Source: a phage. From it: a stretch of DNA of 64,000 nucleotides. Each line of letters opens with the position of its first letter. The first letter of the stretch is position 1. The stretch lies in sequence record PZ445473.1; one strand, 5' to 3'. The notes under the pieces are model-generated. The model saw only the letters and a list, made by a program, of their open reading frames with translations. It searched no databases and was not told the origin of the DNA. Made by a program: the position numbers and the translations under genes. This document shows, in pieces, positions 3,084 to 62,122 of this stretch.

Positions 3084-3110
3084 CCCTGCCTTCGGGCGGG
3101 GTTTTTTCGT
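3084..3110 (+). terminator. rho-independent terminator after capsid genes
   Basis: Hairpin CCCTGCC-TTCG-GGCGGGG followed by TTTTTTCGTTTT. Confidence 0.6.
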
Positions 3111-3135
3111 TTTAAGACCTATACAAGCCAGCGTG

Positions 3136-3145
3136 TAATGTATAT
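3136..3145 (+). promoter_or_regulatory. TAATGTATAT motif (putative phage promoter element)
   Basis: One of at least six intergenic copies of TAATGTATA, here 33 nt upstream of the ATG at 3178. Confidence 0.4.
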
Positions 3146-3177
3146 TCTTTGTCTACATATAACAAGGAGGACAACCT

Positions 3178-3939: not shown

Positions 3940-6588
3940 ATGATCGTTTATAATAACCAAGCACCTGATGCAGTGAATAACGTTGGGCAGTTTGGTGCTA
4001 CTGAAGGTTCTATCGGAGCTTACAAGCAAGCAGCAGAATATGCAGCTGATTCTAAGTATTGGTCACTGTTGGCAGAGGCTAAGTTTGGTACAGTTGATGA
4101 CTTGATTGCTCAGGTTGAGATTCTATACAAACAAGGTGTTCTATTAAAAGAAGATATTGAAGACTTAAAACAAGACTTCATTGCACAAGACTCTCGTTTG
4201 ATGAACCTCATTGCTCAAACTAACGCAGCTGTAGCTGATGCAAATAATGCAGTTGCTCTGATTAATCAGAAACTTGTAGAAGTTCAGAATCAACTCGACG
4301 TTCTGTTGGGAATGTCTGTTGACGTAACTACACTTCCTCCGGGAACTCCGGCTACTGGCTCTTTTAATCCGAACACTGGTGTAATCTCTCTGGGTATCCC
4401 AGAAGGTGATCCCGGAAAGGATGGTTCTGTTACTGACCTATCTGCTGCTCCTACCGGTACACCGGAGCTGGGGGACATCGGTTTCTATGTTGACAAAGAT
4501 GATAACATTGTTCACAAAACAACTCTCGAAGATATTGCAAACCTGATCCCATCTGTTCGTTCTGTTTCAGTTAACGATGGCCCTGCGCTTGATGGTGAAG
4601 TTGCTCTTACACTCAACAAAGAGACGGTAGGTCTTGGGAACGTTTTGAACGTGGCTCAGTACAGCCGCCAAGAGATTAATGATAAGTTTGACAAAACAAC
4701 TAAAACCTACCAATCGAAAGCCGAAGCTGATGCGGATGCTCAATACCGACAGGTAGGAGAAAAGGTTTTGGTGTGGGACTCAACGAAGTATGAATTCTAT
4801 ACTGTTGCAGCGAATAAAACCCTTACTCCGGTTAAAACAGAAGGTCGTATCCTAACTGTTAACTCCCGTGCTCCTGATTCAACTGGTAACATCGATATCG
4901 TAATCCCAACAGGAAACCCATCTTTGTATTTAGGGGAGATGGTAATGTTCCCTTATGACCCAGCTAAAGCTGTCTCCTATCCGGGCATTCTTCCTGCGGA
5001 CGGTCGTTTGGTGTCAAAAGAATCTGCTTTGGATTTAGGCCCATCCCTTATCAGTGGACAACTCCCTGTTGTTTCTGAAACAGAGTGGCAAGCTGGTGCT
5101 AAGCAGTATTTCTCTTGGGGTAAATTAGCCGATGGCATCACTGATGCAGATTCTACTAACTATATCAATATCCGTCTTCCTGATTGGACAGGCGGTGAGG
5201 CTATTCGATCCCCTGATTCTGTAAAAGACAGTGCATATAAAGGTAATGTTCAAAGTCAGGTCCCTTATGTAGTCACTGTAAATAACCAAGCTCCTGATGA
5301 GATTACAGGTAACGTCAATATCTCCAGATCTATCTTAGGTGCTGCTGCTGCTGGTGCAAACTCTGATATAACATCTATGACTGGACTTACGACAGCGCTG
5401 TCTGTTAATCAGGGTGGAACAGGGGCGAAGAATGCCAGTGACGCCAGATCTAACTTAGGACTTGGTTCTGTTTCTACATTAAACAATATTCCAGTAGAAA
5501 ATGGTGGTACAGGTGCTAGTACTGCTGATGGTGCTAAGTCTAATTTAGGCGTAGACAGAATAGAACAAAGCTCTTGGGAGACTAAGATCTTTTCTCCGAA
5601 TAGAGAAACCTACATGTTTGTCGATAATAACGGATGGGGGTGTTACCGTACCACATCTGGATTGGCTGGTGATGTAGCTTTGTCAGTTGAAAGAGGGGGC
5701 ACCGGAGCAACAAATGCTGTAGAGGCTAGATCTAACTTGGGTTTAGGTTCTGTTGCCACTCTTAGTAATGTACCAATCGCTAGTGGTGGTACAGGTGCTA
5801 GTGATGCTGCCGGTGCAAGGTTTAATTTGGGGTTGGGAAATGTTTCTACTCTGGACAACGTACCAGTCGCTAGTGGTGGTACAGGTGCTAGTGATGCTGC
5901 CGGTGCCCGAAGCAACCTCGGAGCGCTGAGTAACACTCCAGCAAACACAGGTGCAGGTAATACTGGTGCGCGAGTCCAACATGCCACCGGAAGAGGTCTG
6001 TTTACTTTAGACATGTTTAACTGCTACTGGTATATGCAGCCAGAGGATACTAACTTCTGGGTTGCCCACGGTGTGTCATATGCAGGGCCTAATGGCGAAG
6101 CCTCAGAGTATGGTCGTATATCTTACGCAATAAAGATTGCAGATGGAACAACAAAATATGTCCATTGTCTTACAAACAAAAACACCATCATTGATACAGG
6201 CGGATTTATCAAAGCGGCATCTCCGGTAGTTAACATTTATGCCAACGGTCGGTATGAAACGAACGATGAGTCTGAGGGGGTTAGTGTCATCCGGCAGGGT
6301 ATTGGTGAATATCTGATTACCGGTTGCCTCGGTCTTAACTCTGATGCAAGATGGGGTGGAGTGGATGGGGGGTTTGAAATCCCAACAGATCGCAACAAGC
6401 AACCTAGGATTTGGCTGGACTATGAGGTTAAAGAAGATGGTTCTATTTTAGTTAAAACCTATCACAGAACTCACCCAACCTCTCCAGTTTTTGCTAGAAA
6501 CGAGATAGAAGGTTTTTCTGATGGGGACCCTATTGATATTCCAAGTGATGCTTTTATCTCAGTTCGTGTAGAGATGCCAGCTGAGTAA
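3940..6588 (+). CDS. tail fiber protein with glycine-rich phage tail-fiber repeats
   Basis: 882 aa; repeated GGTGA..ARSNLGLGSV.TL.NVP.ASGGTGASDAAGAR units matching the phage tail fibre repeat pattern. Confidence 0.65.
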   Translation: MIVYNNQAPDAVNNVGQFGATEGSIGAYKQAAEYAADSKYWSLLAEAKFGTVDDLIAQVEILYKQGVLLKEDIEDLKQDFIAQDSRLMNLIAQTNAAVADANNAVALINQKLVEVQNQLDVLLGMSVDVTTLPPGTPATGSFNPNTGVISLGIPEGDPGKDGSVTDLSAAPTGTPELGDIGFYVDKDDNIVHKTTLEDIANLIPSVRSVSVNDGPALDGEVALTLNKETVGLGNVLNVAQYSRQEINDKFDKTTKTYQSKAEADADAQYRQVGEKVLVWDSTKYEFYTVAANKTLTPVKTEGRILTVNSRAPDSTGNIDIVIPTGNPSLYLGEMVMFPYDPAKAVSYPGILPADGRLVSKESALDLGPSLISGQLPVVSETEWQAGAKQYFSWGKLADGITDADSTNYINIRLPDWTGGEAIRSPDSVKDSAYKGNVQSQVPYVVTVNNQAPDEITGNVNISRSILGAAAAGANSDITSMTGLTTALSVNQGGTGAKNASDARSNLGLGSVSTLNNIPVENGGTGASTADGAKSNLGVDRIEQSSWETKIFSPNRETYMFVDNNGWGCYRTTSGLAGDVALSVERGGTGATNAVEARSNLGLGSVATLSNVPIASGGTGASDAAGARFNLGLGNVSTLDNVPVASGGTGASDAAGARSNLGALSNTPANTGAGNTGARVQHATGRGLFTLDMFNCYWYMQPEDTNFWVAHGVSYAGPNGEASEYGRISYAIKIADGTTKYVHCLTNKNTIIDTGGFIKAASPVVNIYANGRYETNDESEGVSVIRQGIGEYLITGCLGLNSDARWGGVDGGFEIPTDRNKQPRIWLDYEVKEDGSILVKTYHRTHPTSPVFARNEIEGFSDGDPIDIPSDAFISVRVEMPAE
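5401..5925 (+). repeat. tandem coding repeats within tail fiber gene, including an exact 40-bp direct repeat
   Basis: TCGCTAGTGGTGGTACAGGTGCTAGTGATGCTGCCGGTGC occurs identically at 5777-5816 and 5867-5906. Confidence 0.8.
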
Positions 6589-8845: not shown

Positions 8846-8914
8846 GTAGTAAGTACCCTTAGTAAGTAATGAAACTAATATATCCCAAGAGGTTAATATA
8901 TAGGAGACACTCAA

Positions 8915-9133
8915 ATGAAAATGATGAAACAAGCTGCATATGGTTTAGTTTGTTTAGGTGCAGGTGTTGTGGTGTCAACCGCAGTTCCTGTAGGCGCAGT
9001 TCTTCCATTAGTAACTGTCCCTGCTCCAGTAGAGAAACTTAGTTCTCAATGTAAGCAGCGAACCATTCAAAATAATCTAGTTGTTATTTGTCCTGATGCT
9101 GAATCTAACGCTCTGAGAAAGATACTACCTTAA
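8915..9133 (+). CDS. small hydrophobic/signal-peptide protein (possible holin or lysis accessory protein)
   Basis: 72 aa; N-terminal hydrophobic stretch LVCLGAGVVVSTAVPVGAVLPLV; immediately upstream of lysozyme. Confidence 0.45.
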   Translation: MKMMKQAAYGLVCLGAGVVVSTAVPVGAVLPLVTVPAPVEKLSSQCKQRTIQNNLVVICPDAESNALRKILP

Positions 9134-9162
9134 TTTAAAGGGACCACAAAAGGAGGTTAGAA

Positions 9163-13541: not shown

Positions 13542-14510
13542 ATGGGTGCAGGTGGTTTTCGTAAGAACACTGGTCGCAATAACACCACACTCCCGTACAA
13601 CGTTGGGTTTCTCAATAATGTACAGGACACAGAAACTTATAACGTAGCCGTTTATGATGAACTACAGAAAGTCAGCACAGCTACTAACCAAATGTTCCAA
13701 GCTATAGATGAAATTCACGAAGAGATTGATGTTCGTATCAAAGCTCTTCATGCGATGAATCTACAATTTGATGAGCTTGAGAATAGAATTACTACAGAGA
13801 TAGAAACAGCTATTGCAGACATTCAAACACAGATGGGGAACCTCTCCACTGATGATATTTGGGATAACTCTGTTCAACCTCCGGTAAAGCTAGAAAGCAC
13901 AGTATCTGGCTTTAAGACAAGTATTGAAGGTAACACAACTAAAATACAGACTGTCGAAGGTATTGTTAATGATCAAGGTCAAGAGATTGCTTTAGTTCAG
14001 ACAGAGATTCAAAACATTAATGGAAGCCTATCTCAGTATATGAAGCTCTCTGAGTATGAAGCTACGTGGGGTGTTAACTCTTCTGTTAATGGTCAGTACG
14101 CTGGAGTTAAGCTAACTAACAACGGAACAAACAGTCAATTCCAAGTAACCGCTAACAAGTTTGTTGTCGGTGATGGTACGACAGGGAATACACCATTTGT
14201 GTTTGAGAATGGAAGAGCTAGGATGGAGTTCGCTGATATAAAGAACGTCAACATCACAACAGCTCAGGTTGCCAACGCTAGGATTCAGTGGGCACAGATT
14301 GATAACGTATCCATCTCCAACGCCCAAATTCAGAACTTGTCAGCGGATAAAATCACTGCTGGTTCTATGTGGGGTTCTAACTGGAGACTTACTGTTGGGG
14401 GTGACTTTGTTATGGGCGGCACAGGTGGGGCACAATTGTGGATGAATGGGAACAGGATAGACTTCTATGATGGAAGTGGTGCTCTGAGAATTAGGATAGG
14501 GAGTTGGTGA
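13542..14510 (+). CDS. tail fiber-like protein
   Basis: ATG at 13542 with GGAGG RBS; the track start at 13512 lies inside the terminator; coiled-coil N-terminal half and beta-rich C-terminal half. Confidence 0.45.
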   Translation: MGAGGFRKNTGRNNTTLPYNVGFLNNVQDTETYNVAVYDELQKVSTATNQMFQAIDEIHEEIDVRIKALHAMNLQFDELENRITTEIETAIADIQTQMGNLSTDDIWDNSVQPPVKLESTVSGFKTSIEGNTTKIQTVEGIVNDQGQEIALVQTEIQNINGSLSQYMKLSEYEATWGVNSSVNGQYAGVKLTNNGTNSQFQVTANKFVVGDGTTGNTPFVFENGRARMEFADIKNVNITTAQVANARIQWAQIDNVSISNAQIQNLSADKITAGSMWGSNWRLTVGGDFVMGGTGGAQLWMNGNRIDFYDGSGALRIRIGSW

Positions 14511-16342: not shown

Positions 16343-17395
16343 ATGTCTTTATTTGGAAAATCAGCTTCTAGCAAAACCTCAGTGGCTCCTTCCTCTCAGG
16401 TTGATGCCCTGCTGAAGCAGATTGTTGCTAATGCTCAGAATATGCAGAACAACGATCAGGGATTCATTTCCCAACAGCTGGCTGGGTTTAATGGCAACCA
16501 ACAAGGTGCTCTGAACAACTTGGCAGCTTCTACTACTCAAAAGCAATTGGCTGATATGTACACACCTCGTACACAGCAAGGGCTAGACCAACTGAATTCT
16601 CTTGCCCAGCAGTATCAGAATATTGTTAATGGTGGTGGCCTGACTGCTGACGGTGTTAATAACTTTAGTAGAGGTTTAAACAACTCAGCTCTTGCTCAAG
16701 CTACCAGTAAAGCAGCTTCCAATGTATCTCTTGGAAATGGTTCTGACTCAGGCTCTCTTCGTAGAGCTGCTGCTCAGGGTGCTGCTCTTAATGGTGCTAA
16801 TACAAATCTCTCTCGTACCATCAATGGTAAGAACATGGGAATTAGTGCTCTTCAACAAGATCAAAACTTCCAGAGAGGTTTGCTTGGTGCTCAGTCTGGT
16901 TTAGCTGGACAGAACCTCAATCTCGGTGCACAAGGTGTTCAGGCAACTCAGCAAGCTATCCAGAATCAACTCATGGCTGGTAATTTACAACAGCAACAAG
17001 CTCAAGCTCAAGCAGATATCAATTGGCAGAATACTATTGGTTCTCGGCAGTATGGGTGGAATCAGCTTAATAATCAGCTTAATGTATTAAACAGTGTAAG
17101 CCCGATGGCTGGATATACGATTAAGAATGCTGCTCCGGGTATTAATACAGGACAACAGCTCCTAGGTGCTGGTATTACTGGTTTAGGTATTGCAGGTCGT
17201 TTGGGTGCTTTCTCTCCTGACCAACAGACTCAGAATGCTTGGAGTTCCTATAACAATTCAGGCGGGCAATCTGGAATGGCTGGTCCTATGATTGGGGGTT
17301 CTAATCTTTCTCAACAGAAAGGTCAGTCTAACTGGTTATCCACAATGGGTAATAATATCTTAGGTGGTGTCTTAGGGGCATTCGGAGCAAACTAA
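16343..17395 (+). CDS. Gln/Asn/Gly-rich low-complexity virion protein
   Basis: 350 aa; compositionally biased; AGGAGG RBS. Confidence 0.45.
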   Translation: MSLFGKSASSKTSVAPSSQVDALLKQIVANAQNMQNNDQGFISQQLAGFNGNQQGALNNLAASTTQKQLADMYTPRTQQGLDQLNSLAQQYQNIVNGGGLTADGVNNFSRGLNNSALAQATSKAASNVSLGNGSDSGSLRRAAAQGAALNGANTNLSRTINGKNMGISALQQDQNFQRGLLGAQSGLAGQNLNLGAQGVQATQQAIQNQLMAGNLQQQQAQAQADINWQNTIGSRQYGWNQLNNQLNVLNSVSPMAGYTIKNAAPGINTGQQLLGAGITGLGIAGRLGAFSPDQQTQNAWSSYNNSGGQSGMAGPMIGGSNLSQQKGQSNWLSTMGNNILGGVLGAFGAN

Positions 17396-18389: not shown

Positions 18390-20063
18390 ATGCAACAGAC
18401 AACTTACGCTCAGGTCAGAAGTCGTGACCCGAGAAATACTTTCTATGGTGTTAATCCGGGAGCGGCTTCGGCCTCTCCTTATATGGCTAGACCTATTCAG
18501 ACAGCAGATATTTCTATGTACCAACGTCCTGCTGTACCTGCTGGACTTTCTCGTCTTGTAGGTCAAACTTCAGTAGATTATCAGAATATGCTGAACCCTG
18601 TTCAGAGTAATGGACTTCCTTCTGATATTCCTAATGACGTACAACCTCAAGCACAACAAGCTGTAACTCTTCCTGAGCCTGACAATAAAGAAACTGTGCA
18701 AGATGCCGGACCTTCTCCTTCTTCTGTTCCTCAAGAATCAGAGCCTCTTCCGGTGACGCCTCCTACTAAACCGCTAGAAGATGGCCCTATGGAGTTTACT
18801 CCTTCTCAAGTGGAACAGGCACAAGGTGTTGTTACTACTCTTGCTCAAGGTCAGGACACTGGAGACGGAATGGCTGGGGCTACTCGTATTAAAGATCAGG
18901 AACGTGTTAATAATGATATCATGCAAATTGCTAAAGCTAAAGACCCTTCCGAAGCTTGGAATAAACTACAGAAAGAACCTTTCTATCAGAACTCTAGTTT
19001 CTACACAGGTTTGATGGGTGTAGGTCTTTCAATCATGTCAGGTAAATCTCCTATTGAAGCATTCCAAATTGGTCAGGGAATGGCTAATCAAGATGAGACT
19101 AAGAAGCAACTAGAAGCTAACCGTGATGCTCTGATTGAACAAGGTTTCTCTCAAGACTCAATTGCAGCTGCTATTGCTAACGGAGATCCATCTCTTCTGA
19201 AGATGAAATCTATAGACCCTGCTCAAAAAGAAGCGTGGTATGCTGAGCGTGAAAGACGTCAGAATGAGGAGTGGGATAGACGTCAAGCTATCAGTGAAGC
19301 TTCTGCTGAAAAAGGTCGTAAGGCTACTTTTGAAAACCAATTAGCTCTGGCTGAAGCTCGTGGTGAGATTACTCGTGACAACCAGTTGTTCAAGAATGAA
19401 CACAGTGTTCGTAAAACATCTCCTAAGTGGGAAAAATCAGAGGAGCTTGGTGGTATTACTCCTAATTTACGAGACAAGTTACAGCAATCTTATCGTCCTG
19501 TTATTAACGTCCTGTCTTCTCGAAACAAGTGGATGGCTCCTACAGAAGCTGCTATTGCTAAACTGGGAACTGGTACAAACTCACAAGAGAGTGCAGCTCA
19601 GCAACGTGCTGCTATTGAGAACTTAACTAAACTTATTCAAGGTGGTTTAGCTTCTATTAATGGCGAAGTTATGAATGAGCTTACAGGCGATCCAGATTGG
19701 GTTAACAACAAGTTGAATAAGATTCAGATGATGGCAGGTCAAGGTCCGACCGAATCTAATATCAAGTGGCTTAAAGCACTTGGTAAAGAGATTCAAGAAA
19801 TTGATAAAGAGGCAACTAAGTATCAAGTAGCACCTCTAGTTGAATCTTTGATACTTGACAGCAAACTCTCTCCTGAGAATGCTATCCGTGCTGCTAACTC
19901 TATCTTTGCTCCGGGTTCTGTTCGACTCACTACTGAAGAGTTTAAAGAATGGTCTCGTGGACATAGCAAAGTTCATGATAAGACATTCCCTGATGACAAG
20001 CCTTCTAAATTGAAGGGTGGTGCTTTATCTGGTTCTTCAGATACTAGCTGGTTCACTGAGTAA
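18390..20063 (+). CDS. putative internal virion protein
   Basis: 557 aa; Pro/Ser-rich N-terminal region; position between SLT protein and large internal protein. Confidence 0.45.
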   Translation: MQQTTYAQVRSRDPRNTFYGVNPGAASASPYMARPIQTADISMYQRPAVPAGLSRLVGQTSVDYQNMLNPVQSNGLPSDIPNDVQPQAQQAVTLPEPDNKETVQDAGPSPSSVPQESEPLPVTPPTKPLEDGPMEFTPSQVEQAQGVVTTLAQGQDTGDGMAGATRIKDQERVNNDIMQIAKAKDPSEAWNKLQKEPFYQNSSFYTGLMGVGLSIMSGKSPIEAFQIGQGMANQDETKKQLEANRDALIEQGFSQDSIAAAIANGDPSLLKMKSIDPAQKEAWYAERERRQNEEWDRRQAISEASAEKGRKATFENQLALAEARGEITRDNQLFKNEHSVRKTSPKWEKSEELGGITPNLRDKLQQSYRPVINVLSSRNKWMAPTEAAIAKLGTGTNSQESAAQQRAAIENLTKLIQGGLASINGEVMNELTGDPDWVNNKLNKIQMMAGQGPTESNIKWLKALGKEIQEIDKEATKYQVAPLVESLILDSKLSPENAIRAANSIFAPGSVRLTTEEFKEWSRGHSKVHDKTFPDDKPSKLKGGALSGSSDTSWFTE

Positions 20064-20083
20064 GACCTAAGTCCTGCCTTCTA

Positions 20084-26273: not shown

Positions 26274-27444
<1,171 letters not shown>

Positions 27445-27692
27445 AATGCATCTCTTTATAAATAGTTTCCGTGTTCTTCTTCCAGTTAGATAAACCGGTA
27501 AGAACCCTCTGAGCAACTTCATCAGCTGCCTTACTTCTTTCAATCTCTAACTCTTGTTGATGCTTTTCTTTATCCAGATTGTTACTATCTGTTCTGTACT
27601 CATTAAACTTCATTCCGCCAAAGAACACCAGAGCAGAGAAGATAACAAATCCTAGATTATCACTTAAAGTGCTTTGCATATTGACCCCAACG

Positions 27693-27716
27693 AAAAAAGC
27701 CACCCGAAGGTGGCTA
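27693..27716 (-). terminator. rho-independent terminator (minus strand)
   Basis: Minus-strand AGCCACC-TTCG-GGTGGCT followed by TTTTTT. Confidence 0.55.
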
Positions 27717-27736
27717 AGCTATAACAAGGAGAGTTA

Positions 27737-28483
27737 TTAGAATGGGCTGTCGTTGTCGTCTTCGTAGGTAGAAGCAGGCTCTTTATCAATCGTAGGGATT
27801 GAAGGGGTAGCTTCTTTCTGTTCTGTTTCAGAAGCACGAGTAATTTCACGACCAGCCAGAGGAATGTTCTTAGCGTCATTAGCTTGAGTAAGCAGGTTGC
27901 GCTGGAACGGGAACATCAGTTGATAAGATGCTACGTTCTCATCGGTTTCCGCATACGGTTCGAAGAATACCAGAGGACTACGAGCTTCACCAACTGCTGC
28001 ACGATATTTGGTTGGGATTGGAGAAATGGTTTTGATGGAGTTTTTAACTTCACCAGCTTTGTTAGTGTAGGAGTTAACCAGAATGTTAACAGGCTGACCT
28101 AACAGCACATCCTTAAACCAAGACAGATCACCTTTCAGTGCTTGAATGCTTGGGTCAATCATCTTGCAAAGATCAAGGATACCAGAGTTCTTAGCTCGTG
28201 GGTTTACATCATAACTCTTGAACTGGCAAGCAGGACGTGGTTCTAATGCCTTACCATCGGAATCTTTACCCGTAGCATCAACACCAATCAGCTCGAAAGC
28301 CAAATCCATACGGAAAGCTGGATTCTTAGGAGTTACTGCTTTGGTCTTCGGGTCAATCCAAGGGTCACGATTGTGAACACCCAAACCTACTACACGAACA
28401 ATACGTGCTTCGTATTCACCATCAGGGATTACATCGTAGTTGGATTTACGAGAAGAAGTTGCGATAGTTGGAATCATAGACAT
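27737..28483 (-). CDS. ssDNA-binding protein-like (acidic C-terminal tail ending in Phe)
   Basis: 248 aa ending YEDDNDSPF, resembling the acidic C-terminal tail of SSB proteins. Confidence 0.45.
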   Translation of the reverse strand: MSMIPTIATSSRKSNYDVIPDGEYEARIVRVVGLGVHNRDPWIDPKTKAVTPKNPAFRMDLAFELIGVDATGKDSDGKALEPRPACQFKSYDVNPRAKNSGILDLCKMIDPSIQALKGDLSWFKDVLLGQPVNILVNSYTNKAGEVKNSIKTISPIPTKYRAAVGEARSPLVFFEPYAETDENVASYQLMFPFQRNLLTQANDAKNIPLAGREITRASETEQKEATPSIPTIDKEPASTYEDDNDSPF

Positions 28484-28541
28484 ATTTTAATTTCCTTATT
28501 TAATTTGAAAGATTGTTGCTCTCTTTGAGCGGTTATGTATA

Positions 28542-28551
28542 GTATACATTA
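28542..28551 (-). promoter_or_regulatory. TAATGTATAC motif (minus strand), about 58 nt upstream of the SSB-like gene
   Basis: Plus GTATACATTA = minus TAATGTATAC; part of the perfect palindrome ATGTATAGTATACAT. Confidence 0.4.
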
Positions 28552-28614
28552 CGCTTATACCGATAAGAGTACTATATAATATAAGTATCTTTGGTAGTAG
28601 ATATAACACACTAG

Positions 28615-28626
28615 TAATGTATATAT
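28615..28626 (+). promoter_or_regulatory. TAATGTATATAT motif on plus strand inside a 420-nt gene-free region
   Basis: CTAGTAATGTATATATTG; oriented away from the SSB gene. Confidence 0.3.
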
Positions 28627-28905
28627 TGTATAGCTGATAAAGTTATTGCAGGCTTGTATATTGGGCAATTCATAGAATCCCTTGCAAGTACCGAAGGGCA
28701 GGAGCCACCTGCGAGATAAAAAATAGAGAATTAAGGAATCCTTGATTTAGGTTGTAGGGACTCCTAGGGACTTTGATTCTCTATTTAAAAGAATAAATAA
28801 TTACTATATCTAATACTAAACAGACTGAAACAAAGATAAGAAACTTCTTATAAATACTCATTACTTATCATCTAAATAGTTAACTAATCTCTGATATAAA
28901 GAAGT

Positions 28906-29094
28906 TTAAATCAAGCATCCATCACAAACATAGTCTCCACTAAGAGACTCTTGTAACAAACGATTTTGTTCCTCTGAATATAGAGAATTTACTAATTCTT
29001 TTAACTCTGAAAGAGTGATGAAATCAATAGTATTTCCATTATCTAAAATAGAAGAGTTAAGTAAATATTCATTGTCTTTAATTTTATTAATCAT
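28906..29094 (-). CDS. hypothetical small protein
   Basis: 62-aa ORF. Confidence 0.35.
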   Translation of the reverse strand: MINKIKDNEYLLNSSILDNGNTIDFITLSELKELVNSLYSEEQNRLLQESLSGDYVCDGCLI

Positions 29095-29391
29095 TCTTCA
29101 TTTCCTTTTACTTCAGCGTAGACTTTGATAATGCCCTTAAGAACTTCCTTAGAAGCAATAGCACTTTCTTCAGAGGTGTGAATAGTAGAAAACTCTTTCT
29201 TTCCAATCTTGTAAGTGTGAACCCAAATCATACTTATTCCTCGTATTCCCAATTTCTTTCATAATATCCAGAGTTATAATTTAGAGCGCATCTCTCAGCC
29301 TCTTCTATGTCATCAGTGTTTAGGATATTTACCCACCCACCAACTTCATCAAAACCTTCTTCCTCTTCGTTAAACCATACACTATACTTTT

Positions 29392-29784
29392 TCATCGAAT
29401 CACCAAAGGCTCTTCAGAGTACACAGGAGCGGCTATTTCTACAGGAGGTGCTGCCCTAAGGTCATTAAGTCTTACTCCCTTCAGCATCCCATCTAGGTGG
29501 TCCTTTTTGGGTATTCCAACAGGGAAGTCGTCAATCCAGATATCTACAAAGAAACCTAACTGGCGACATACGTCATCTTTCTGAACACCATTGCAAAAGA
29601 TGATAGGAATCTGCAAACGCTCTGCATCAATCTTAATGTCATGATTATCATACCCATTAGGCTCTGCAAAGCGATAAGTTACAAAACGTACATCATAACC
29701 TTTGGCTTGCATTAATGCCACCACAGATCGCCACAGCTCTTTATCTGAGGTGTAAGTATCATCGTAATCTAAACCAATATTCAT
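29392..29784 (-). CDS. hypothetical protein
   Basis: 130-aa ORF. Confidence 0.45.
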   Translation of the reverse strand: MNIGLDYDDTYTSDKELWRSVVALMQAKGYDVRFVTYRFAEPNGYDNHDIKIDAERLQIPIIFCNGVQKDDVCRQLGFFVDIWIDDFPVGIPKKDHLDGMLKGVRLNDLRAAPPVEIAAPVYSEEPLVIR

Positions 29785-30022
29785 GTTGAATCCTTTTAGA
29801 CAAGAAAAGCCGCCCTAAGGCAGCTTCTTATTTAACTATTCACTTTAGCTTCAAGTGTTTCATTTTCAATACTCAAGTCAATCACTACGCCAGTAAGCTC
29901 AACGACTGCTTGGCGAAGGGCGTCTTTACCCATAGAATGTACTTGAGATAAGAAGAAAGCTTTACCTTCTTCCGTGGATAGGGTTTCTTTTAATTCAGAA
30001 GCAGTCATTGATATTCCTTATT

Positions 30023-30214
30023 TTACATTGTATAAATTCGCATGATTGTACCACCATCAGCTTCAATAGCAGAAACAACTTCATCTCGTTCTTCATCCGT
30101 GTACACTAGTACGCTTTTAAACGAGCCAGTCACATCTGTGTACAAAATGTTGTACTTGGGAGGTGGTTTACGGTAAATACCTTCCATCATTCTTTCTCCT
30201 CTCGTTCTTTCCAC
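30023..30214 (-). CDS. hypothetical small protein
   Basis: 63-aa ORF. Confidence 0.35.
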   Translation of the reverse strand: MERTRGERMMEGIYRKPPPKYNILYTDVTGSFKSVLVYTDEERDEVVSAIEADGGTIMRIYTM

Positions 30215-30384
30215 AGTTCAGCAAGCTCTAGGTAGAACTCAGCTTCATCAGGACGTCCTTGTTCATTACAGATGGCGCTTTGACGATAACACCAATCTGA
30301 TGGCATCTCTTCCACTTCAATCTCCTTATTATGAACTAATCAATAAGACTAGTTCATTTGTATTTCAATCTTTCAGTTCTGAAT

Positions 30385-32229
30385 TTAGTGTGTATGCATC
30401 CAGTTTAACCCAATCTGACAATCAGAAGCCAGAGGACATTCCATGTTCAAGTACTCACCAGCCTTCTTAACACAAAGCTCGGTGTACTCTTTGAGTTTCT
30501 GTACATCATTACGGTTCACTGAGAACTGGCCCTCATCGTGCATATCAATTACCTTAGCACAACGAACTCCATCTTTCTCAATCCACTTGTTAAGGAACAT
30601 CATAGCATATTTCATAACAACAGCACCAGCACATTGCAGGAGTGTGTTAAGGGCTTTATGAACCATAACCTTACCAGTGGCATCCCGTCTCATTGTAATC
30701 TTACGACCATCAACGCCAATCAAATACCCTTGAGCAGCTTTCTCTGTCATACGATCAATGAGGATTGCAATACATGGGTTCTCTGCCAAGAAGCGTGCTC
30801 GCATCACTGAACCTTCGTCAGCTCCACCACCTACGATTGAACCAAGCTTAGCATCACCAGCACCATAGTTAAACGCGTAGATAAACGTTTTAGCGTTGTC
30901 ACGAGTAGGAAGACCAGCAAGTTTCTGGTTGTGGGAGTGGATATCACCTTCAAGAAGGATATCACGATACATAATAGCAGAAGCTAAACCACGTTCTGCC
31001 AGAGCTTTCTTAGCTGGATTATTCTCTTCGATTGCTTCAGCAAGCATATCCCTACACTCTTTAATGAGGTAGTGAGCGAGCATACGAAGTTCAAGTCCAG
31101 AACCATCATACCCTAAGAATACTTCTTTACCAGCGGGTATGTAATATTTGTAAGCACCTACAGGCTTATCTTTCTTCCCCGGCTTACCTTTCTCGTAAAT
31201 TACGTTAGTACCTTTTCGTATATAACAACCATCAGGAACAACGTTAGTAATAACGAAAGGACGAGAGTGATCACTGTCTGAATTATAGTCAGACTCAAAC
31301 AAACTGCGACACTCATGACCAAACAAACCACGGGAGGGAATATTAACCACGATACGATGTTTGAATCGAAAAGTTGGCGTAGCGCAGCTGTTAGCTTCTG
31401 CCGAAAGTTTACCATCTTCGCGTTCCTTTGCTATGAGTCCACTGATAAGACCTAGCCTGTGAGCCGCTACAACGCGCCTCTTAAGCAAACTTCCAACACT
31501 CCCTAGCTCGCCCCCTAACCCTTCTTCAAGAGTCTCCTCGAGGTTTGTAGGAGCTGTAGGCCACTTGTTTGAGGTAGCTAGTGCTATCTTAATCTCATCA
31601 AACGTGATAGGTCTACTTCGGTTAGGGTTTAAACCTAAACCAAACACATAAGCCTTCATATAGTTCTTAGTCTTAAACCTAAAATGCTTCTCTAAGAACC
31701 TCCTAATATCTGCGTCAACCATCTCGGCTGTCTGCTTCTGTTTAGCATTACCTCGCATCCAAGCTGAATACCATGCTTGGTATGTCCCATACTTTCGAAT
31801 ATCTTTCTTGATTTCAAAAGTATTCCAAGGTTTCTTTGATACGTTAAACTCTGGAGGAAGAAAACCCTCATCCATAAGGGCTTCTTTAACTCGTGCATCT
31901 TTCGATGGGTCAAAGTCTACATACTCAACACAGGTGAATGCTCCACCAATGTCTTCTCTCTTAAGGCCAACTCTATCACAGTAGGCTTGAGGCCACTTCT
32001 GTAAAGCTCCAGACTTCTTAAATGGCTTCATATAAGTAGAGCCATCTAATCTCATCTTAGGTAAGAGAGGGATCAGTTCTTTGTCGATATTAACAATAAT
32101 CTCTTTAAGGAGGTGAACATACCACCGAGCATTTCTTCGGTTGAAACTCACTCCGTGCTTCGCTTGCTTAGAGATTATATCAGCGACAGTCATCTCTGTC
32201 AAAAATGGGAGAGCGTCCGGGTTGCTCAC
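30385..32229 (-). CDS. DNA polymerase, family A (polymerase domain only)
   Basis: Motif A LGYDGSGLELRMLAHY, motif B RDNAKTFIYAFNYGAGDAKLG, motif C VIDMHDEGQF. Confidence 0.85.
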   Translation of the reverse strand: MSNPDALPFLTEMTVADIISKQAKHGVSFNRRNARWYVHLLKEIIVNIDKELIPLLPKMRLDGSTYMKPFKKSGALQKWPQAYCDRVGLKREDIGGAFTCVEYVDFDPSKDARVKEALMDEGFLPPEFNVSKKPWNTFEIKKDIRKYGTYQAWYSAWMRGNAKQKQTAEMVDADIRRFLEKHFRFKTKNYMKAYVFGLGLNPNRSRPITFDEIKIALATSNKWPTAPTNLEETLEEGLGGELGSVGSLLKRRVVAAHRLGLISGLIAKEREDGKLSAEANSCATPTFRFKHRIVVNIPSRGLFGHECRSLFESDYNSDSDHSRPFVITNVVPDGCYIRKGTNVIYEKGKPGKKDKPVGAYKYYIPAGKEVFLGYDGSGLELRMLAHYLIKECRDMLAEAIEENNPAKKALAERGLASAIMYRDILLEGDIHSHNQKLAGLPTRDNAKTFIYAFNYGAGDAKLGSIVGGGADEGSVMRARFLAENPCIAILIDRMTEKAAQGYLIGVDGRKITMRRDATGKVMVHKALNTLLQCAGAVVMKYAMMFLNKWIEKDGVRCAKVIDMHDEGQFSVNRNDVQKLKEYTELCVKKAGEYLNMECPLASDCQIGLNWMHTH

Positions 32230-33312: not shown

Positions 33313-33347
33313 TTAGAACTCCTTAATATATCAGTGTACACTAAGGA

Positions 33348-33357
33348 GTATACATTA
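33348..33357 (-). promoter_or_regulatory. TAATGTATAC motif (minus strand), 36 nt upstream of the ATG at 33312
   Basis: Plus GTATACATTA = minus TAATGTATAC. Confidence 0.4.
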
Positions 33358-33729
33358 TGAATGATGTTAAAACTCTGCTAAGTATTTAATATCAGAGGCA
33401 TATACCTCATCAAAGGAAATAATTTCTCCATTGTAAAGAAGTTCTATCTTCAATATACCAGAGCATTTGGTGTCTTTAGAATCAACCCTGATAGAGAGCT
33501 TATCAACTATCTGAGCTTTAATCTCTTCTATCATTAACTCTTGAGTGTTATTCACTCCACCCTCCCGGTGGTACAAAATCATCAGGAACGTCAATGATAG
33601 TAGGTTCTCCATTATTCATGCAGGTGTCTTCATTGAACTCTTCACACTCAAAGCATGCTCGTTCGATATTTTTGTAGAAGTCGATGGTTGCTGAACCATC
33701 ACCACAATCTCGGATAACTAGAGCTACTT

Positions 33730-34473
33730 TCATTTCTCTTGTCCTTTTTCCATTGCTTTAACAATAGCTTTACAGAAACCAGAACGAACAATGTCATCTG
33801 ATTCACCATCTACAATCTCAGCGAACTCATACAGATCATGTTCATCAATAAAGTTAGTAGCCCAAGTAAGACCACTCTCACGACCACGCATGTCATGCTG
33901 GTTAGTATCACCCATGCAGAACAGTTGAGAGGTTTCTCCCAATCGAGTCATGATTGAGAAGGCTTCATCTTTAGTGGTGTTCTGGAATTCATCAACAATA
34001 ACAACAGCATCATTGAAAGAACGACCACGGAGATATTCCAGAGGTACGAACTCAATATTACTGTTACCAAGCTGGCATTCATAGAACCCCTTACCATATC
34101 GCTGAGTAATAACATCGATGATAGGCATCAGGTATGGTTCAAACTTCTCACGCATCCCTCCCGGAAGTAACCCAAGAGAGTTGCCCATACCAACTGAAGG
34201 ACGGCTAAGAATGATCTTCTGAATCTTACCACTCTTCAGAGCATCGATAACTGTAGAAGTGATTACATAGGTCTTACCACAGCCCGCAGGAGCGTCTGTG
34301 AACACCACTTGTTTAGTCTTGATAGCATTGAGTAGCTCAGATTGAAACTGATTCTGAGGAACCACTGGCTTCGCTAAAACAACCTCTTCATACTCACGCT
34401 TACCTTTCTTAGTGACCAAGGCTTCACGACGTAAATCTTTACGAGATTCTCTACGGGACTGTCTACGGCTCAT
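33730..34473 (-). CDS. phoH: PhoH-like ATPase
   Basis: Walker A PAGCGKTY; LSRPSVGMGNSLGLLPG and VIVDEFQNTT match PhoH family motifs. Confidence 0.8.
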   Translation of the reverse strand: MSRRQSRRESRKDLRREALVTKKGKREYEEVVLAKPVVPQNQFQSELLNAIKTKQVVFTDAPAGCGKTYVITSTVIDALKSGKIQKIILSRPSVGMGNSLGLLPGGMREKFEPYLMPIIDVITQRYGKGFYECQLGNSNIEFVPLEYLRGRSFNDAVVIVDEFQNTTKDEAFSIMTRLGETSQLFCMGDTNQHDMRGRESGLTWATNFIDEHDLYEFAEIVDGESDDIVRSGFCKAIVKAMEKGQEK

Positions 34474-37314: not shown

Positions 37315-37596
37315 AACTCTCTCCTGTAAAATACAAACTCTTATTGTACTCTATATACATTTGAGAGTTACCATATCTACTACCAATCAGTAGTGAACTT
37401 TTCCGCTAATATAAACACGACCAGAGGAATACTCTTTGGCCTTATGGATACTGATACTCTTAGTTAAATCTGTATTGAACATAGACTTTTTAAAATCTCG
37501 AGCCTGTTGACGAGTAGGAAGTGCAGTCATGGTCATACCACCTGATGCCCACTTAATCTTTGCTAACCAAAACTGTCTCATAATGATTGGCCTCAT

Positions 37597-54056: not shown

Positions 54057-54131
54057 TGGCGTTCCCTCGTGGAATCGAACCACGAATAAGAGCTTAGAAG
54101 GCTCCAGTTATATCCGTTTAACTAAGGGAAC
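54057..54131 (-). tRNA. tRNA-Arg (anticodon UCU)
   Basis: Hand-folded cloverleaf: acceptor GTTCCCT/AGGGAAC, D stem GTTA/TAAC, anticodon stem GGAGC/GCTCT, loop CTTCTAA, T arm CGTGG-TTCGATT-CCACG, discriminator G, CCA. Confidence 0.8.
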
Positions 54132-62052: not shown

Positions 62053-62122
62053 AAACGGGTATTAAATGTATAGGATGGTATACACGGGGCAATAACTGCA
62101 CGGGATAGGGCACGGGAAAAGT
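62053..62122. repeat. clustered ACGGG-core repeats
   Basis: AAACGGGTA, ACACGGGGCA, GCACGGGATA, GCACGGGAAAA within 70 bp; TACACGGG recurs at about 62483 and 62622. Confidence 0.4.

Follow-up and report, generated by a model that had tools for sequence, protein, structure and literature searches.

A predicted seventh gp36-type promoter and a candidate structured RNA opposite P40 in the gene 40/41 intergenic region of a phiEco32-like phage

What does the long, AT-rich stretch without genes upstream of the gene 40 homologue in phage genome record PZ445473.1 contain? The window analyzed here is the whole 64,000-nucleotide (nt) stretch of that record, numbered from its first letter, and the gap in question spans positions 28484-28905 (422 nt), from the start codon of the gene 40 homologue to the stop codon of the next open reading frame (ORF) on the minus strand (28906-29094). 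The window belongs to a phiEco32-like Kuravirus: over the 801 bases spanning the gap (28300-29100), identity reaches 99.9% with Escherichia phage JacquesWildberger_Bas92 and 99.6% with phage LAMP, and the first 506 of them are approximately 98% identical to phiEco32 and to dozens of other Kuravirus records. Since the flanking genes are homologues of phiEco32 genes, the gap corresponds to the intergenic region between genes 40 and 41 in such a phage. A preliminary description, made from the sequence, had called it gene-free and AT-rich, and this holds, with a GC content of 29.9% against 42.3% for the window and only 0.3% of all 422-nt segments equally AT-rich; the composition is not uniform, however, with 26% GC in 28484-28629, 39% in 28630-28790 and 22% in 28791-28905. 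The same description had suggested either a replication origin or a divergent promoter node. Sequence comparison makes it probable, in our judgment, that the gap holds divergent promoters for the phage sigma factor gp36, namely, the published P40 and a second one driving an unannotated structured RNA of approximately 160 nt.

PMC8948821, PMC4331800 and PMC4281155 describe tAATGTAtA as a single-element promoter for Escherichia coli RNA polymerase carrying phiEco32 gp36, with the start site 6-8 nt 3′ of the element; AATGTA is, by the published rule, centered at −11.5. They list six such promoters known by experiment, the late P6, P13 and P26 and the middle P40, P58 and P68 (PMC8948821 with its Table S3, PMC4331800, PMC4281155), the middle ones being credited in PMC8948821 and PMC4331800 to Pavlova et al. 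2012. The gp36 element corresponds to TAATGTATA, of which the window contains 5 exact copies against 0.70 expected, a number reached in none of 100 shuffles. On the plus strand, P13 maps to 3136, P26 to 20084 and P6, in the form TAATGTAgA, to 63441; on the minus strand, P40 maps to 28543, P58 to 33349 and P68, in the form aAATGTATA, to 37354. Exact copies within the gap lie at 28543-28551 (minus) and 28615-28623 (plus). Thus, the motifs reported earlier in both orientations are present, although the positions first given for them were off by 1-3 nt.

The minus-strand copy is the published gp36-dependent middle promoter P40, which serves gene 40. This exact −10-type element is invariant in all aligned relatives, and the upstream contact region, tAGTAc, lies at 28569-28574 (minus). 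The published spacing rule places the P40 start at approximately 28536, which yields a predicted 53-nt 5′ untranslated region (28484-28536, minus) that is 90-100% identical in relatives; AAGGA at 28493-28497 is its ribosome-binding site, and a short hairpin, GCUC-AAAGA-GAGC, lies at 28518-28530. The 15-nt palindrome highlighted in the preliminary description, ATGTATAGTATACAT, is indeed found at 28535-28549. As a class, however, such palindromes are at chance level in the window, where inverted repeats with 7-nt arms and 0-3-nt spacers number 16, compared with 18.8 ± 4.5 expected from Markov simulations. Nor is this one a feature in its own right: it consists of the P40 −10 element overlapping a partial inverted copy of itself, TTATGTATA (28533-28541, plus), with one mismatch to the element. 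Its arms, TGTATA/TATACA, enclose a 1- or 3-nt center in close relatives and are lost in the relatives L043 and L047, which retain the P40 element.

The plus-strand copy (28615-28623), an exact match to the consensus that stands outside the published list of six, is a candidate seventh gp36-type promoter with a predicted start at approximately 28630, 94 base pairs (bp) from the predicted P40 start. That it fires is suggested by its conservation, by a match to P68 and by the bases that gp36 contacts. In the cryo-electron microscopy structure of the gp36 holoenzyme with gp79 on P68, the N-terminal domain of gp36 reads −14A, −13A, −12T and −11G, whereas the C-terminal domain touches −37G and −34A, and mutating these bases kills transcription (PMC12276001). 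With +1 at 28630, AATG of the plus-strand element falls at −14 to −11, G28593 at −37 and A28596 at −34, and all bases read by gp36 are present. The last two are supplied by the −35-region block TTGGTAGTAGATAT (28591-28604, plus), a 14-mer identical to the block 5′ of the validated P68 (37373-37386, minus) and standing at the same 10-nt distance from the element. Within this block, TGGTAGT is invariant in all carriers, and element plus upstream block, TGGTAGTAGAT, proved invariant first in 11 and then in 21 distinct sequences from Kuravirus, Suseptimavirus and Nieuwekanaalvirus, while the DNA between and beside them varies. AATG is kept in 29 of 30 distinct carriers, and the distance from the element to the 5′ hairpin of the unit described below is fixed at 6 nt, with the exception of HC-25922 (8 nt). 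The putative promoter opposes all neighboring genes, and the ORFs 3′ of it on the plus strand are all spurious; it does not, therefore, stand 5′ of a middle or late gene in that gene's orientation, as the known promoters do. Because no gene follows on the same strand and the neighbors lie on the minus strand, it is better called a non-coding-RNA promoter.

The DNA between the two promoters (28553-28590) is a variable spacer, with an insert of approximately 145 nt in ES17-type phages. In ES17 (L011:682-825), and also in L012, L025-L029 and L034, this insert holds a minus-strand ORF that starts with ATG and encodes 47 amino acids (aa) rich in Lys and Arg; its start codon overlaps the plus-strand −35 block, and it is expressible only via read-through of the conserved hairpin described below.

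The preliminary description had raised the idea of a non-coding RNA driven by the plus-strand motif, and a conserved, covarying, non-coding unit does follow that motif. The candidate RNA (28630-28790, plus) would be approximately 157-161 nt long here and 145-188 nt in relatives, and its conserved part contains indels. No conserved protein-coding gene fills the region: across the gap, no ORF is conserved in frame or extent in 21 distinct relatives, one of which lacks any ORF of at least 25 aa, and every genome record inspected leaves the block of roughly 300 nt unannotated or covered by spurious ORFs. In 29 of 30 distinct sequences, the fold predicted for the plus strand is the more stable of the two, with mean energies of −44.8 (plus) versus −38.5 kcal/mol (minus); for the window, the fold z-scores are −2.5 (plus) and −1.5 (minus). 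Searches of positions 27000-30500 with cmscan against Rfam 15 (E ≤ 10) gave no match within 28484-28905, and ARAGORN detected no transfer RNA (tRNA) or transfer-messenger RNA in the gap.

A strong signal of RNA structure comes from the 5′ hairpin P1, AUAGCU-GAUAA-AGUUAU (28630-28646, plus), which starts at the predicted first transcribed base, 7 nt after the element in nearly all carriers, a position that indirectly supports the predicted start. In the alignment, 98% of the P1 cells are paired, and compensatory changes occur in 4 of the 6 pairs. The covariation score is 0.548 versus 0.149 in shuffles, none of 500 reaching the observed value, and shifting the partner column destroys the pairing. 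Eight stem variants exist, all of which pair: ATAGCT/AGCTAT, ATAGCT/AGTTAT, ATAGA/TCTAT, ATAGTT/AACTAT, AGAGTT/AACTCT, ATCTCT/AGAGAT, ATCTCT/AGAGGT and ACATC/GATGT. Two of them contain a wobble, and this is a G.U pair only when read on the plus strand, the minus strand having A.C instead; all four polymorphic one-sided changes in the unit produce plus-strand G.U pairs, which would be C.A on the opposite strand. P1 is separated by the conserved tetranucleotide TGCA from a variable middle module (28651-28692, plus), which is bounded on its other side by the conserved flank GAAGGGC. The module occurs in at least 4 unrelated or barely related types, A in the window, B in MN05, ECBP2 and ES17, C in L041, L043 and L047, and D in L050, and type assorts independently of the P1 variant, which indicates recombination between the conserved flanks. 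Within type A, a compensatory change turns CUUG/CAAG into CUUA/UAAG in L046. A long-range pairing UUGCAGG/CCUGCGA predicted for type A RNAs was rejected, as L041 compensates the local hairpin GCUGG/CCAGC and does not keep the long-range partner.

The remainder of the unit is a nearly invariant 3′ block (28693-28790, plus), 94-99% identical in lineages whose gene 40 shows only 83-86% identity over its first 394 nt, and almost unchanged in metagenomic carriers with the gp40 protein at 71-72% identity. It begins with hairpin H3, GCAGG-AGCCA-CCUGC (28698-28712), in which one compensatory A-U to U-A flip is seen in L041. An A-run of varying length (28718-28723) and a 12-bp outer stem (28721-28732 with 28775-28786) follow, the stem enclosing hairpins H4, AAGG-AAU-CCUU (28733-28743), and H5, UAGG-GACU-CCUA (28755-28766), all on the plus strand. 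The short direct repeat noted earlier near 28750 is TAGGGACT, present at 28755-28762 and 28765-28772, both copies within the 3′ block and the second one after H5. Variation in the block is confined to the hairpin loops, including their length, two bases after H3, the length of the A-run and two one-sided transitions, both of which retain G.U on the plus strand only. A UCC/GGA pairing proposed by RNAalifold for the 3′ domain was discarded, fitting the variation worse than the simple AAGG/CCUU hairpin. Four conserved GGA or AGGA motifs stand at hairpin stem-loop junctions, the four GGA comparing with about 1.2 expected by our own estimate; a CsrA-sponge reading of these motifs was left as speculation, the GG bases being predicted to pair.

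How widely is the unit distributed? An exact 22-nt pattern from the invariant block was absent from 185,579 species genomes, and its viral and metagenome matches were all Kuravirus-like contigs. The unit is absent from relatives with gp40 at 66-70% identity and from the Grimontviridae phages 7-11 and Privateer, which have short unrelated gaps (75-150 nt where measured) 5′ of the gene 40 homologue; L054 (gp40 at 65%) also lacks the element, its contig stopping approximately 200 nt upstream, so that the gap length is not measurable. Because the more distant relatives have other, short gaps, the distribution indicates that the unit is an innovation of the phiEco32 subgroup, where it co-occurs with the AATGTA-type promoter specificity. 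Five of the relatives without the unit and with gp40 at 66-70% (L017, L018, L019, L052 and L053) carry a different conserved block, GGAAGCATCTAGCAAAGCTAGCATATCAAAGCTAAGCTAAGCTATATGCTT, rich in GCTAGC and AAGCT repeats, approximately 60-130 nt 5′ of the gene 40 homologue, which may serve a sigma factor with another specificity, as promoter or terminator region.

We propose the following scheme for the divergent promoters. Leftward, E. coli RNA polymerase carrying gp36 transcribes gene 40 from the known P40, with a predicted start at approximately 28536. Rightward, the new promoter would start near 28630 and yield an RNA of approximately 160 nt, antisense to the surrounding gene cluster. The hairpin at the first base probably protects the 5′ end, and the 3′ domain, with three short hairpins, two of them within the 12-bp stem, probably blocks 3′ exonucleases and marks the 3′ end; stable small RNAs are usually built in this way, with a 5′ hairpin at the first base and a large hairpin domain at the 3′ end. 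The predicted 3′ end could arise by non-canonical termination or by exonuclease trimming to the hairpin. The middle module appears exchangeable between phages. From the middle period of infection onward, the RNA would act in trans, its 3′ domain being bound sequence-specifically, most likely by a protein. Recognition by a partner is suggested because the primary sequence of this domain, including unpaired linkers, is invariant while the stems of P1 and of the module drift freely. As for the role itself, we only tentatively suggest that the 3′ domain is a sequence-specific ligand, such that an abundant small RNA from the seventh gp36 promoter titrates or recruits a protein, with the middle module tuning lineage specificity; candidate partners under that suggestion are a host RNA-binding regulator or defense factor, which the four GGA/AGGA motifs would attract, or the phage replication or transcription machinery. 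Read on the minus strand, the same compound hairpin may also attenuate read-through into gene 40, since U5-6 comes after it and the stop codon of the upstream gene immediately precedes it. Such an attenuator role is weakened by the A/U-rich stem base, which makes a poor canonical terminator, and by the ES17-type phages, which place a read-through-dependent ORF beyond the hairpin.

Several observations weigh against a functional plus-strand promoter and a trans-acting RNA. In the one carrier without AATG (L025, metagenome contig ERZ1034915 NODE-75, ~8913-9140), the critical −11G is mutated (TAATATATA) and the RNA unit 3′ of it is intact, and distant carriers have TAATGAATA or GAATGTATT at the element, with AATGAA in place of AATGTA. 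The published macroarray and primer-extension work gives six promoters only, the plus-strand copy not being among them, and no Kuravirus RNA sequencing was found in the literature searched. Covariation in the 3′ domain is weak, with 28 of 500 shuffles reaching the observed values, because the block hardly varies. No canonical plus-strand terminator follows the unit, where the stem is succeeded by UUUAAAA, and none occurs within 1.4 kilobases (kb) in phiEco32; the minus strand does have U5-6 after the stem, but the structure there is a compound hairpin of 66 nt, A/U-rich at its base. Finally, target searches were empty: 5,426 E. coli genomes contained nothing similar, the sole match among 72,556 plasmids was at chance level (Ligilactobacillus, E = 0.1), and a search for complementarity to a trans target within the phage genome gave nothing above chance as a target, the only better-than-chance match being the −35 block common with P68. 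A 16-nt near-match at 34077 was considered as a trans target and dropped on account of its position in the middle of an ORF.

The genes around the gap bear on its interpretation. The gene 40 homologue (27737-28483, minus; 248 aa) is homologous to phi32_40 and matches phrog_6599 (E = 6e-119), and the gene for the sigma factor itself, a homologue of phiEco32 gp36, lies close by (26540-27184, minus). The preliminary description had called the former a single-stranded DNA-binding protein (SSB)-like gene. Sequence searches of Pfam and of the Protein Data Bank returned no match for its product; on the other hand, an AlphaFold model of gp40 (30 homologues; predicted local distance difference test score, 82) gave weak structural matches to OB-fold SSB-type proteins, the best being PrgE 8s4s (E = 9e-4), followed by bacterial SSBs, RPA and PriB. 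The protein ends in ...EDDNDSPF, an acidic, SSB-like C-terminus, and an acidic tail ending in Phe is typical of SSBs. An OB-fold, SSB-like product is plausible but only weakly supported. Homologues of a 5′-3′ exonuclease and of a DNA polymerase also flank the gap, the polymerase gene being approximately 2 kb away. The LAMP record MG673519 (36462-38574) annotates the polymerase as a coding sequence joined from two pieces, and the window ORF 30385-32229 (minus, 614 aa) corresponds to the C-terminal part only; the gene is therefore split or recoded. The limits of the RNA unit match those of homology between the phages; on its far side, this homology ends at approximately 28790 and gives way, depending on the lineage, to gene 41, to a phosphoesterase gene or, as in the window, to an AT-rich spacer (28791-28905, 22% GC) and the ORF 28906-29094. 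This lineage-specific spacer, outside the conserved unit, is the 3′ untranslated region of that ORF on the minus strand. The sole tRNA gene of the window, tRNA-Arg(TCT), lies at 54057-54131 (minus).

That genes for DNA replication adjoin the gap lends some appeal to the origin suggested in the preliminary description, in the form of a transcript-primed origin, in which the plus-strand promoter makes a primer RNA, as ColE1 RNA II is, and DNA synthesis starts in the AT-rich DNA just 3′. As in T7- and T4-type origins, a predicted phage-specific promoter here precedes an AT-rich region: the structured RNA is followed by 115 nt at 22% GC (28791-28905), AT-rich DNA comes after the unit in all lineages, the SSB-like gene is adjacent and the polymerase gene is approximately 2 kb away. 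However, this AT-rich DNA is not conserved in sequence and is coding in some phages; the extrema of cumulative GC skew, which follows gene orientation, lie at approximately 24-25 kb and 61-62 kb and not at 28.5 kb; and there are no iteron arrays or DnaA-box-like repeats, the lone direct repeat being TAGGGACT ×2 and other repeats being chance-level two-copy matches. In addition, rightward primed synthesis would meet approximately 30 kb of minus-strand transcription head-on, and the element is missing from more distant relatives that have the same replication genes. We therefore regard a transcript-primed origin as unlikely. Thus, of the two possibilities first offered for the gap, the origin is left without positive support, with no skew extremum and no iterons, whereas divergent promoters are borne out to the extent that P40 is published and the plus-strand copy has the gp36 determinants, conserved while the flanks diverge.

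If not an origin, the gap might contain minus-strand cis signals only, with a hairpin terminator or processing site ending the upstream operon and a plus-strand motif that is non-productive, couples the promoters by sending negative supercoils from divergent transcription to P40, or has a lambda OOP-like cis-antisense effect on the read-through RNA. The minus-strand hairpin with U5-6 does follow the upstream gene's stop codon by 6-30 nt in several lineages, it sits between an A-run and a U-run as bidirectional terminators do, and the divergent promoters are only 94 bp apart, start to start. Nevertheless, a terminator needs no invariant 38-nt interior or linkers, and its stem should covary as P1 does, whereas here the stem base by the U-run, A/U-rich with 2 G-C pairs in 12, is that of a poor intrinsic terminator. 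G.U polarity and folding energy both favor the plus strand, and the covarying P1 is tied to the start site on that strand. The promoters need not be closely coupled either, given the 145 nt and the ORF between them in ES17-type phages, an ORF that itself needs hairpin read-through. We judge such a cis-acting arrangement unlikely. More doubtful still is the possibility that the 3′ block is a double-stranded DNA binding-site array for a phage protein, be it an operator, an enhancer or a site for a replication factor. Three short AGGA..TCCT dyads (GCAGGAgccaCCTGC, AAGGAaTCCTT and TAGGGAcTCCTA) and a half-site, with centers approximately 32 and 22 bp or roughly 3 and 2 helical turns apart, would suit such an array, as would conservation of primary sequence, and the compensatory flip in H3 preserves dyad symmetry too. 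The dyads, however, vary in spacing, the H4 center being 1, 2 or 3 nt and H5 losing bases, which suits a hairpin loop but not a rigid dimer site; the one-sided changes preserve G.U pairing at the expense of dyad symmetry, and the block is part of a unit whose position is fixed relative to a promoter and a covarying 5′ hairpin. A small protein-coding gene missed in the gap, finally, is very hard to credit. Short ORFs are annotated here in some GenBank records (4E8 g037c and 101114UKE3_039), and the window has two 37-aa non-ATG minus-strand ORFs in the gap, but the gap ORFs have TTG or GTG starts, are of low complexity, overlap the promoters and are not conserved in frame or extent in the 21 relatives, and the conserved block carries 1- and 2-nt indels.

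The inventory of gp36 elements yielded further observations. One-mismatch copies that keep AATGTA occur at 62064-62072, 13616-13624 and 17080-17088 (plus) and at 5473-5481 (minus); that at 62064 (AAATGTATA) lies near the strand switch at approximately 61-62 kb, ahead of late genes, and might be another promoter. The late promoters P13 and P26 have a common upstream block, TAAGACCTA, at about −38 to −30 (3101-3135 and 20049-20083, plus), and the middle promoters P40, P58 and P68 have in common with the predicted new one tnG(T/C)A(G/C) at −37 to −33 (28569-28574, 33375-33383 and 37373-37386, all minus, for the former three). The −35 region may thus separate the middle from the late class. TACA, the inverted TGTA, is found up to 15 nt 3′ of the element, around the start site, in 4 of the 6 known gp36 promoters (28536-28543, 33335-33349, 37340-37354 and 3145-3160), which by our estimate is above chance. 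A copy of the −35 block with two mismatches (TTAGTATTAGATAT; 28806-28819, minus) lies just beyond the right end of the RNA unit; restricted to LAMP-like phages and with no gp36 −10 element after it, it is probably due to chance or a remnant. Scans for sigma-70 promoters and for terminators gave counts not above those in shuffled sequence.

phiEco32 is a model for phages that redirect the host RNA polymerase via their own minimal sigma factor, and its six promoters so far all serve protein genes. The known half of the present arrangement is P40; the new half would be a seventh consensus gp36 promoter and a conserved, unannotated, apparently non-coding unit. If this is correct, an RNA player would be added to the gp36 program, and the plus-strand promoter would provide a clean in vitro template for studies of gp36 and gp79. 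Kuraviruses are widely isolated for phage therapy, and the block described here is more conserved than the adjacent protein gene; such conservation usually marks an indispensable function.

Among known systems, the T7 primary origin, where the promoters phi1.1A/B precede an AT-rich stretch, and T4 oriF and oriG, which consist of a middle promoter and an unwinding element, likewise combine a promoter for a phage polymerase or phage sigma factor with AT-rich DNA near replication genes; they need no long conserved structured RNA, however, and here there is no skew signal and the AT-rich part is not conserved. With the pRNA of phi29 (RF00044), an example of the stable structured RNAs that phages encode, the candidate has in common a discrete, structured form of about 120-190 nt, a defined promoter and a prolate-headed podovirus as its source. 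Unlike phi29, Kuraviruses package with a conventional terminase, and, whereas pRNA conserves structure, the candidate RNA has no Rfam match and its 3′ domain conserves sequence. The OOP RNA of lambda, a 77-nt transcript from promoter Po, opposite to the rightward operon and next to ori, was once suspected to be a replication primer, and it too is a short structured RNA with its own promoter, in opposite sense within a one-directional operon near replication genes. A strong intrinsic terminator stops OOP, which overlaps the 3′ end of cII, whereas the candidate RNA has a non-coding overlap in most phages, lacks a canonical plus-strand terminator, is twice as long and contains an invariant domain that OOP-like cis-antisense action does not require. 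The last comparison is with the promoters of phiEco32 itself. The plus-strand copy differs from the six in being unlisted, opposing the neighboring genes and having no ORF 3′ of it, as a predicted promoter; with P40, P58 and P68, however, it shares tAATGTAtA, to which it adds the exact 14-nt block of P68, the same spacing, −37G and −34A, all conserved across the phiEco32 subgroup.

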